A DNA stretch of 63,199 bases, filler included, from Globobulimina sp. (lineage: Eukaryota), in the NCBI GenBank assembly GCA_003354225.1. It is 19 parts of 19 records of this genome, joined end to end, with 100 filler letters (N's around TTAATTAATTAA, not from the genome) between each part and the next. Parts side by side here need not be neighbours in the genome. Positions count along the whole stretch, not along the records: positions 3,336 to 6,569 come from PIVH01003349.1; 18 more parts are not named here. One strand, given 5' to 3'. The notes under the pieces were generated by a model. The model worked only from the letters and a program-made list of their open reading frames with translations, had not been told where the DNA came from and did not search any database. The translations under genes and the position numbers were made by a program. Positions within the stretch are counted from its first letter, which is position 1. The number at the start of each line of letters is the position of its first letter. Below are positions 3,336 through 6,669 of this stretch, one piece after another.

Positions 3336-3468
3336 GCTATAAACAGGCAGTGTTTCAAAAACGAAATGTTTTGAATTCGTAATTTTAACAGGCAGTGTTT
3401 CAAAAACGAAATGTGTTTCAAACAGGTGTTTTTTTAAATCCCCACCAAAGTCATCGACAAAGCTAATA

Positions 3469-6223
3469 ATGTCAACCACTGAGACAAAAGAAAATGCTCT
3501 TTTTCCAGAATATATTGAAGTATTTGGTAGAATCGGTTACAGCAATGAAATGAATGGAATTTATCGAAAATCTCTAGATTTATGGCACGACCATCCACAA
3601 TGGAGACAAATCAATTTTGATGGTACGGAAATGCAACAATATTTCTGCATTCGTCGTGATCATGACACTGGCATTTGGATATTTGATTGGATAGAAATAC
3701 CAGAATGGGAGAGATATAATGCGTATATACATTGGGACGACAATACCACTGCACAATCACCATTACAATGCAGTAAACAATGGAAATGGTACAATCCAAC
3801 CACTAGCACATATGTCATTGATCCCGCCATCGCCATGCAAGAAAAACCAACCACCGAATATAAAGTTAAATTATATACACACATCATACTAAGTAACACA
3901 TATCATGCATGCATCAATAAAATAAAAAATAAAAAGAAATTACAGACTGCCTATGGTAGCGTCCCTGACGTCTTTGACGAATTAAAGCAGAGAGTGGCTG
4001 AGCTGGAAAGGCAGAATGAAAGTTTACAGACCGCACTGGCCCAACACCAGCAAGCCGACACCAAAGGGTTCAAGCGACATAGCAACGAATTCTGGGACAC
4101 CGTCAAAGGTAACAGCAAGGACCCTGAATATGTGAAGAAACTATTAAAAGATAAGGAAATACGCGTAAACGATGCAAACAGCACTGGAGAGACATTGTTG
4201 ATCTATGCGGCAATTATGGGGCATTATGAAACTGCGCAATTACTGATAAATATGGGTGCGGATATACAGCAGACGGACGACAAAGGACAGACGGCCATCG
4301 ACCATGCCATTGAATGGAATCAACATCACATACAACGCTTGTTATTATTAAACAGCATGGATGCCAACGTTGGTAACAGAATTGAAGAAACCTCGTACGA
4401 TTTGAAGATGCAAAATGGTATCATCTCCAATATAGTGAATACATTGGCGGACTATGACAGTACCACACGGCCATTCTTTCAAAACACAATGATCGATATA
4501 ATGATCAAGGTCATCGAGAAGAAATTGGCATTTTCTGATCAGTTATTAAATCTGTGCTGGCAGTTTATTATCGATAATGGCGAAGATCCGCTACAGTCGC
4601 AGCTATGGAAGACGTTGCAAGAAACGTGCGCCTCCATCATAGAGAGTGGCGATAAGAGGGACTGGTTTTACTTCAAAACGTTCATCAATCCCTCGCTGAT
4701 ATGGTACAGTAAAGTGCAACCAAACGAGGAGAAGACCGATGGGGATGAAGATGGCGCCGTGTATCTGTATTATAAATTATTTGGGCTCGTCAGTGGCGAG
4801 TCGCAGAGTCAAACGCAAGAACTAAAGAATGGCATCGACAGATTAGCAGAGCAGAACAAAGCGTCTTGGGATAGTTTGGTGAAATGGGACATTCCCGACG
4901 GCGAAATGAAGCCGCGACAGGACGCCATACCAAATGGTAATGCTTTATATAACTAATGTACTTATTATTTCATGTATTTTTTTGTTGCTTTAAGGTGTGG
5001 TGTCGCGGTATTCCAAAATTGAGATCTTATCGCAACAGATTTCAACGAATTTCGTGCCAGCTAAGTTTTGTGATTATAACCAGTATCTGTCGCAGTTGGT
5101 GTTGTTGGCGCAAACCGTCGACGATAGCTTCCAGAAATCGGTGCAGCAGATATTTGAAATCGATGATGTGACTAATTTGGGCAGCATTGAGTTGATTGGC
5201 GAGGAAAAGGGCAGCGGTGACGGCGTGATTGAATATATGCGGGGACCCTTGAAACAACTGTCGAGGGCTCGCAGTAAAGCAGAAAACGACTACGCCAAAG
5301 AAGAGTGGCCGACCAGTGCTTGCGTACTAGACTTCAATCGCTGTTCATTGGTATTCAACGACATTGCGACCATGTTGGCCGCCATTGACTTATTTGTCAA
5401 CAAAGTGGAATATTATAAGTCTGGCAATGTGATTGGAATCGTGCGGGACAAGAATGGTTTTATTGACTTTGTGAAAGAGACACAATACGCCGATATCAAA
5501 TTAAATGTGCTGCTGAAAGGCGATAAGAATAATATTATCGGAGAGGTGCAGTTTTTATTGCGCACTATGATGGATTACAAGAATAAAGCGCATAATTTGT
5601 ATGCCATCACTCGAGAACGGGAATACGTAGAAAATTGTGTGTCTGCGGTGTTGCCCATTCTGATGGATCCGGATAAGGAGCTATTCATTGCCGGCTCTAT
5701 GGGGGACACCAAAGCGTTGTGTCGGTTGATGACAATTAGCAATGCGACGCAAGCGGAAATTATGAAGGCTGACAACACGAATGATACCATCTTATCCAAT
5801 ATTTGCTACATTGGACATTTAAAGGCATTCAAATTTGTCAAGAATGTGCTTGATACGCAATTGTTTCTCGACCGCATGTTTATGAAAAGTGTATATATTC
5901 AGAACCCGATCGATTATGCCATTGTTTCGAGTGCTGGCGGCCCACAAAAACGAATCATTGAAATTATATTCAAGGATGCAAATGTTTTGCAGAGATTTGA
6001 AAGCGGTGATTATATGACGGCGACGGTCTGTTTTTGGACATTACAAAATTGCGTTGATATTAAATTAATAAAGTTTATTTTTGGTGCTTTGGGAATGGGC
6101 AATGAGAAATTTCAGAAATTGTTTGATCAAATAGAGGACAGAGGTGTTACTGCGACGGTTGCTATTCAAGGCAATGAAACCGCACAAAAGGCATTGCAGG
6201 ATTTGGGTTTAGTTTGGCAATGA
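3469..6223 (+). CDS. Ankyrin-repeat protein with a RelA/SpoT-like nucleotidyltransferase domain; probable introns 3865-3945 and 4937-4994
   Basis: Ankyrin repeats GETLLIYAAIMGHYETAQLLINMGAD and GQTAIDHA. Intron 4937-4994 (GTAATG...TTTAAG, phase 1) joins ORFs 3469 and 4997 in frame. Motifs GPLKQLSRARSK, LDFNRCSLVF, VRDKNGF, YADIKLNV, EVQF, KAHNLY. Confidence 0.72.
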
Positions 6224-6669
6224 AAAAAAATAAAATAATTATTGAATCGTATATATTTGTTATATATTTTAAATCAGTTCTGAATAACTATTTTTTTTTT
6301 GCTTAAAATGATAATATTTAGTAAACTGTTCATTAATCCGGGGGGGAATAATCCCATATTTTAGACAACAAATAATGATTGACATCATTAGGGGTTGTTC
6401 TTATATTGCGCAATATAAATTTGGACCTAGGACCTATGGTTATTGCAATTTATTGCAATTTAGACCTGAGTTGTGGGCTCTTAACGCAAGCTTATTTAGC
6501 ACAACAATATGGATCACAGACAAGTCTCGAGTTATTGCAATTTATTGCAATTAAGGATACCTAGGTCCTNNNNNNNNNNNNNNNNNNNNNNNNNNNNNNN
6601 NNNNNNNNNNNNNTTAATTAATTAANNNNNNNNNNNNNNNNNNNNNNNNNNNNNNNNNNNNNNNNNNNN

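Follow-up and report, generated by a model that had tools for sequence, protein, structure and literature searches.

Introduction

The known alarmone synthetases of eukaryotes are mainly plastid enzymes, together with a few sporadic genes for bacteria-like small alarmone synthetases (SASs). For the RelA/SpoT homologues (RSHs) of eukaryotes, the part of a previous survey considered here records plant RSH1-4, Mesh1 and sporadic divRel SAS enzymes in Aspergillus, Gibberella, Dictyostelium and two diatoms (Atkinson et al. 2011, PMC3153485). RelA/SpoT-like toxin domains also occur in bacterial polymorphic toxins and effectors, according to the sections consulted of Zhang et al. (2012, PMC3482391). 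Tas1/Apk1, a type VI toxin that synthesises (p)ppApp, and the exported SaEAS are described in an excerpted report as injected or secreted bacterial enzymes (PMC12691689). Here we describe a gene of Globobulimina sp. (assembly GCA_003354225.1, record PIVH01003349.1) within a stretch of 63,199 nucleotides that was analysed as a whole and is called the window below. We found that the core domain of its product belongs to a new, strongly diverged family with a predicted RSH fold whose named members are only foraminiferal, and that this core is probably an active enzyme of the pyrophosphokinase type with a non-canonical acceptor.

Conserved motifs of the core domain

The initial annotation had read six motif strings, in the order of the RSH synthetase motifs, at 5080–5620, a region that corresponds to residues 29–208 of exon 3. 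All six are present in that order in the exon 3 translation (window 4997–6220). Residues are numbered here along exon 3 (add 466 for the spliced protein), and the conservation counts come from a 162-row family alignment of core domains that are 30–65% identical.

5039–5671, plus strand: predicted RSH/SAS-fold core, 211 amino acids (exon-3 residues 15–225; spliced-protein residues 481–691)
5243–5278, plus strand: motif 1, GPLKQLSRARSK; family pattern G-P-x-K-x3-R-x3-K, with K86 in 126/129, R90 in 127/132 and K94 in 128/132 rows
5324–5353, plus strand: motif 2, VLDFNRCSLV; D112 (5330–5332) in 135/136 and R115 in 132/137
5441–5455, plus strand: VRDKN; family pattern R-x-K-N, with R150 in 132/141, K152 in 136/141 and N153 in 140/141
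5486–5509, plus strand: YADIKLNV; family pattern Y-x-D-x-K-x-N, with Y164 in 138/142, D166 in 139/141, K168 in 138/141 and N170 in 135/140
5543–5554, plus strand: EVQF, in model strand 166–174; E183 (5543–5545) in 137/139 and Q185 in 133/139
5591–5602, plus strand: HNLY; family pattern H-x-x-Y, with H199 in 129/134 and Y202 in 128/133

The six strings are the most conserved columns of the alignment and the modelled fold, described below, matches RSH synthetases, and the motifs are therefore not a product of chance. From motif 1 to motif 2 the near-invariant residues are G83, P84, K86, R90, K94, Y99, P105, D112, R115 and C116; those of the middle motifs are R150, K152, N153, Y164, D166, K168 and N170, and E183, Q185, M191, K195, H199, Y202 and R206 follow in the C-terminal part. 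In paralogues that are 30–35% identical, D112, E183 and at least six basic residues occur in more than 93% of rows. Where the family departs from the RSH motifs, the departures are conserved as strongly as the shared residues. The arginine that follows the motif 2 aspartate lies at +3 rather than at the +5 of the RSH D-x-x-G-x-R, which corrects the earlier reading of this motif as D-x-x-x-x-R, and the family has K-N where RSHs have K-D; R-x-K-N is possibly the counterpart of the RSH R-x-K-D. The core family is under purifying selection, and its conserved acidic and basic residues probably lie where catalysis and triphosphate binding would be expected to need them.

Predicted fold of the core

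We built an AlphaFold2 (AF2) model of the core on a 38-sequence alignment, and obtained a predicted local distance difference test score (pLDDT) of 91.6 and a predicted TM-score (pTM) of 0.83. The model runs through a long helix, two short strands, the motif 1 helix, a strand, a helix, three strands and a long helix, an order that agrees with the SAS core topology. In a Foldseek search against the PDB, the listed matches down to rank 42 were all RSH synthetases with a probability of 1.00; RelP ranked best at an expectation value (E) of 1.5e-6, followed by SAS1, SAS2, an exported SAS, Tas1, Rel, RelA and SpoT. These results bear out the RelA/SpoT synthetase fold that the initial annotation had proposed. 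In the fold comparison RSH enzymes scored 13.3 and other Pol-beta folds 8.7. The model thus predicts the RSH variant of the Pol-beta-like alpha/beta nucleotidyltransferase fold, and places the core closer to bacterial small alarmone synthetases than to any other nucleotidyltransferase of the Pol-beta type. Furthermore, D112 precedes strand 100–106 of the model and E183 falls within strand 166–174, in agreement with the placement of the aspartate and glutamate in the RSH alignment.

Several observations weigh against reading the core as an RSH-type enzyme. A shared fold alone is no proof of function, the Foldseek TM-scores were moderate (0.35–0.58), and identity to the solved RSH enzymes was 5–17%. 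The protein gave no match to RelA_SpoT (PF04607, cut-off 27 bits) in Pfam at E up to 10, and none was found for the core in NCBIfam or PADLOC. A profile restricted to the core found nothing significant in the PDB, the only hit being motif 1 of Tas1 (24 residues, E 1.5). Against 14 RSH sequences, comprising E. coli RelA and SpoT and 12 plasmid-borne long RSH and SAS genes, hhalign gave a non-significant score of 16.7–16.9 (P 0.13), with reversed controls at 12.1–12.6. Membership in the RelA_SpoT sequence family, which the initial annotation had implied, therefore does not hold, with no Pfam match and profile-profile scores barely above the reversed control. In the motifs themselves, the family keeps both lysines of the RSH ATP motif R-x-K-x3-S-x3-K, but has arginine for the serine and proline for the first arginine, so that the arginine of the "R-x-K" once read in motif 1 is lost. 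Of the RSH G-Y-x-S-x-H only the tyrosine is kept, within Y-x-D-x-K-x-N. Finally, the pairing of single residues with those of RSHs is based on a non-significant alignment and the order of secondary-structure elements.

Across the 14-sequence set, SASs only and long RSHs only, hhalign scores were 14.6–16.9 with reversed controls at 7.0–12.6, which we took as non-significant; as a yardstick, SASs against long RSHs score 168. A 24-column match to a narrow RelA profile was judged spurious. No match was found by phmmer against the PDB, and the profile of the full-length alignment found ankyrin matches only, from its C-terminal columns. In the ESM Atlas the neighbours were mostly unnamed clusters; the cluster at rank 17 (score 0.91) carries PF04607 on 34% of its members, and we treat it as a lead only. 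On these comparisons the relationship to RSHs appears to be beyond the reach of sequence methods, with the core outside the recognisable RelA_SpoT sequence family.

The best hhalign alignment, non-significant as it is, was collinear over 107–173 columns. It pairs K86 and K94 with both lysines of R-x-K-x3-S-x3-K, and Y164 with the tyrosine of G-Y-x-S-x-H. Both hhalign runs, equally non-significant, pair D112 with the Mg-binding aspartate of D-x-x-G-x-R, and E183 and Q185 with the glutamate and glutamine of the RSH E-I-Q-I-R-T strand. M191 and H199 fall on the methionine and histidine of the RSH C-terminal helix motif, with H-x-x-Y on H-x-x-Y-K. The register of VRDKN differs between two hhalign runs, and its alignment is uncertain. 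As to the metal ligands, for which the initial annotation had called for a check of the acidic residues, the near-invariant D112 and E183 do fall on the RSH catalytic pair, but the alignment that places them there is non-significant; a match of these two residues to the RSH active site is likely.

The foraminiferal family

A HMMER search of 1.84 billion representative sequences recovered 630 proteins with an E of 1e-3 or below, 81 of them with 1e-30 or below. The closest relative of the window core is 65% identical, and the proteins of the foraminifer from which the window derives are most likely absent from the collections searched. PF04607 was found in 0/38 core-family proteins scanned and in 0/54 long relatives with precomputed Pfam annotation. 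The relatives are multi-domain proteins with N-terminal ankyrin repeats about 280–330 residues ahead of the core, and their tails carry further ankyrin repeats, RCC1, RING, coronin-like WD40 or protein kinase domains. This range of partner domains is typical of signalling proteins. In P0166, P0014, P0104/P0113 and P0049, the core is joined to a protein kinase, a RING finger, RCC1 repeats or a coronin-like WD40 propeller. Another relative, P0120 (1573 amino acids), has two copies of the core, at residues 205–378 and 1169–1352. XopAD-type bacterial effectors typically bear two RelA/SpoT domains, as stated in the consulted portion of Zhang et al. (2012, PMC3482391), and the likeness of P0120 to them may be a coincidence.

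We looked up the source organism of 30 members, of which 18 were named and 12 were unnamed metagenome or NCBI contigs; one further cluster member was also named. All 19 named members come from foraminifera (Nonionella stella 10, Bolivina argentea 5, Elphidium margaritaceum 2, Ammonia sp. 1 and Reticulomyxa filosa 1). The one member located in NCBI and UniProt, the Reticulomyxa filosa protein, bears the annotation "hypothetical protein" or "Uncharacterized protein". Peptide-pattern scans, which are a weak test confined to the chosen patterns, found no relatives in 185,579 prokaryote genomes (GTDB) or in IMG/VR. A literature search, judged on titles and the opening lines of abstracts, returned no account of the core family.

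Gene structure and expression

The window consists of about 19 contigs of about 3.2–3.3 kb each, linked by N44-TTAATTAATTAA-N44, and genes on either side of a linker are not genomic neighbours. The contig and gene are laid out as follows.

3336–6569, no strand: host contig, delimited by N runs and nearly filled by a single plus-strand gene
3469–6223, plus strand: whole gene, three exons, 874 amino acids; coding sequence 3469–3864, 3937–4936 and 4995–6223
3469–3864, plus strand: exon 1 by translation, 132 amino acids, Trp-rich N-terminal module; run contigs begin at 3453–3457
3865–3936, plus strand: intron 1, 72 nt, GT..AG, by arithmetic on the record coordinates of run contigs
3937–4936, plus strand: exon 2, with a long helix (about 3961–4065), three ankyrin repeats (about 4072–4368) and an all-alpha middle domain (about 4369–4881)
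4937–4994, plus strand: intron 2, 58 nt, GT..AG, from run-contig joints
4995–6223, plus strand: exon 3, by open reading frame and translation, including the TGA stop at 6221–6223
5672–6220, plus strand: C-terminal 183 amino acids, conserved, with a weak ankyrin-like pattern
3336–3443 and 6360–6569, no strand: high-copy repeats, with a depth in run X1 of 600–2100 compared with about 4–6 over the gene

The sequence alone suggested a gene model with an ATG at 3469, an open, in-frame intron that begins after 3864 and a second intron, at 4937–4994, whose removal restores the frame. Removal of intron 2 is needed since it keeps the reading frame, and contigs of the public sequencing runs X3 and X6 join 4936 directly to 4995. 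The loose end of an X7 contig reads into exon 3, so that three runs from three studies bear on this junction, which after splicing fits the family consensus RQDxIPNG. Intron 1 is open and in frame and so could not be settled by sequence alone. Record 9 of X3 and record 16 of X6 halt at 3864 and resume 6 letters ahead of 3943 and 12 ahead of 3949, which places the acceptor at 3935–3936 and the start of exon 2 at 3937. Intron 1 is absent from the automatic list of joints because 3904–3942 is masked as a repeat. An initial guess of an acceptor at 3945 was rejected, as the run contigs require exon 2 to start at 3937.

The gene is spliced and apparently expressed. The X3 contigs look cDNA-derived, as their loose ends at 3453 and 6207 resemble adapters, and no run is on record as RNA. 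Of the 39 listed differences between runs within the coding sequence, 34 are synonymous and 32 lie at third codon positions (75 more are unlisted); in the core domain, six of seven are synonymous and the seventh changes V to I. The spliced contigs of X3, X6 and X7 all stop at 6199–6219, shortly before the TGA at 6221, and an A-rich run follows the stop (window 6199–6240), which points either to a very short 3' untranslated region or to a break of the assemblies at this run.

The repeats at the two ends are the likely reason for the short contig. The 5' repeat has two copies of a unit of about 28 nt (AACAGGCAGTGTTTCAAAAACGAAATGT), and the 3' repeat has inverted ends of the GGACCTAGG / CCTAGGTCC type around "TTATTGCAATTT" repeats and is possibly a small transposon. 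No paralogue of the gene was found by tblastn in the other contigs of the stretch.

Domain architecture outside the core

The protein consists of a Trp-rich module, a long helix, three ankyrin repeats, a conserved alpha-helical middle domain, the predicted RSH/SAS-fold domain and an ankyrin-like tail. The upstream ankyrin repeats gave the sole Pfam match in the protein (Ank_2, E 3.3e-13), and the protein is an ankyrin-repeat protein. Together with the run-contig joints, this confirmed the earlier view of an intron-containing eukaryotic ankyrin gene. No HD, TGS or ACT domain was found in either part of the protein by Pfam at E up to 10. The absence of an HD hydrolase had been anticipated, and the layout of long and plant RSHs, in which HD, TGS and ACT domains flank the synthetase, is not found here. 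The N-terminus is acidic, with 4 Glu in the first 17 residues, which is the sole ground for reading it as lacking a transit peptide. In the fold search covering the middle alpha domain, the match list was occupied by ankyrin matches. The C-terminal 183 amino acids are matched by 91 stored relatives, and the family profile matches ankyrin proteins at the corresponding positions; the window copy had no Pfam match in this region.

Exon 1 has 8 Trp in 132 amino acids, as expected from the Trp-rich N-terminal domain of the initial annotation. It encodes a module of about 120 amino acids with the recurring motifs GR.GYNN.MNGIY ... W[IV]FDW. The EukProt protein P0312 (806 amino acids, WD40) starts with a copy that is 53% identical over 132 amino acids, and four further, weaker copies lie within residues 1–528, ahead of its WD40 region. 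The first copy has the same five starting residues (MSTTE) and ends where exon 1 ends. These shared boundaries suggest exon shuffling, with exon 1 as a separate mobile module. The module was absent from all 188 stored core-family members, and it matched no Pfam family and no named ESM Atlas neighbour.

Discussion

Together, the modelled fold and the conserved motifs indicate that the core is probably an active pyrophosphokinase-type enzyme. It would be Mg-dependent and use ATP as donor, bound through K86, R90, K94 and R115, and D112 and E183 would drive transfer of the beta-gamma pyrophosphate to a 3'-OH. On the acceptor side the motifs have changed (to R-x-K-N and Y-x-D-x-K-x-N), suggesting that the acceptor is probably other than the GDP/GTP of the canonical enzymes. 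Adenine nucleotides, which Tas1/Apk1 uses, would be one candidate and RNA 3' ends, which CapRel uses, another; the acceptor could also be a new one. Through protein partners, the flanking ankyrin repeats may place or regulate the enzyme, and the middle domain found across the family and the accessory domains that vary among its members hint, together with these repeats, at partners that recruit or regulate it. That the family acts in immunity or stress is conjecture. On a wider and speculative view, which we think rather unlikely, foraminifera would run a large lineage-specific cytosolic system of nucleotide pyrophosphorylation. Its dozens of RSH-fold enzymes, joined to modules of the ankyrin, RCC1, RING, kinase and WD40 types, would produce an alarmone-like messenger of a non-canonical kind or add pyrophosphate to RNA ends, for signalling or cell-autonomous defence, as a plastid-independent counterpart of toxSAS/CapRel and Tas1.

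The core could instead be a pseudoenzyme that retains the RSH fold as a nucleotide- or protein-binding module without catalysis. It has diverged strongly from every active RSH, has lost several canonical motif residues and is placed among protein-interaction repeats. However, the paired aspartate and glutamate and the basic residues are retained across distant paralogues, as given above, and such conservation is common at active sites but seldom seen in dead domains. We therefore consider loss of catalysis unlikely.

Slightly less likely again is a canonical eukaryotic (p)ppGpp synthetase, making ppGpp/pppGpp from ATP and GDP/GTP and comparable to the divRel enzymes. The nearest folds are the (p)ppGpp-making SAS1, SAS2 and RelP, and Y164 pairs with the acceptor-motif tyrosine, which in RSHs stacks on guanine. 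Eukaryotic SAS-only proteins are also on record in the covered part of the survey (Atkinson et al. 2011, PMC3153485). But the RSH sequence models that detect divRel miss the core family, and no paper in the searched library mentions both foraminifera and ppGpp. Moreover, G-Y-x-S-x-H is swapped for an equally invariant Y-x-D-x-K-x-N, and K-D for K-N.

We hold much the same low opinion of other nucleotidyltransferase chemistry, such as AMPylation or oligonucleotide synthesis, on an RSH-like scaffold. The extra invariant D166 hints at it, but the fold comparison scored RSH enzymes above other Pol-beta folds and the order of the motifs is that of RSHs. The classical nucleotidyltransferase signature is hG[GS] and D-x-D, and it is not among the conserved columns. 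Chance resemblance or a mis-assembled or contaminant sequence, for which the only support is the lack of significant sequence similarity to RSHs, can practically be discounted, given a confident model with specific fold matches, hundreds of conserved relatives, and spliced contigs from three studies with mostly synonymous differences between runs.

Comparison with known systems

The preferred reading, an active pyrophosphokinase with a non-canonical acceptor, sets the foraminiferal family beside several known systems. SAS1/RelQ and SAS2/RelP (PDB 5DED, 6FGK, 6EWZ, 6EX0) are 12–14% identical to the core, with no significant profile match. They have G-Y-x-S-x-H and the arginine at +5, whereas the foraminiferal family has Y-x-D-x-K and the arginine at +3; they stand alone at about 200 amino acids, whereas the foraminiferal core is embedded in an 874-amino-acid eukaryotic ankyrin protein. 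For Tas1/Apk1 and SaEAS (PDB 6OX6, 8VX3), the immunity partner and the secretion signal do not apply to the foraminiferal protein, and the likeness is too weak for placing the family in the Tas1/SaEAS clade. The CapRel/toxSAS tRNA pyrophosphokinases (PDB 7ZTB, 9ERV) differ in their flanking domains, and the core had no PADLOC match; tRNA as a substrate of the foraminiferal family, by analogy with these enzymes, would be pure conjecture.

Among eukaryotic RSHs, divRel resembles the foraminiferal protein in that both are eukaryotic, have an RSH fold of the synthetase type and show no HD hydrolase domain, as far as divRel is described in the covered part of the survey (PMC3153485). In the same part, plant RSH1-4/CRSH, Mesh1 and divRel are found by RSH sequence models, whereas the foraminiferal family is not. 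There is no mention of ankyrin in the survey (PMC3153485). The foraminiferal proteins form a large family with many-domain members, and those with an organism name come from foraminifera only.

The foraminiferal proteins thus represent a large multi-domain eukaryotic family with a predicted alarmone-synthetase fold, an apparently retained catalytic core and a rewritten acceptor site. Standard family models overlook it, and it illustrates how far proteins with the RSH fold can diverge before sequence methods lose them. Should the enzymes prove active, foraminifera would possess a signalling or effector system based on nucleotide modification, a type that has until now been associated with bacteria, phage defence and chloroplasts, and its product could be a new messenger.

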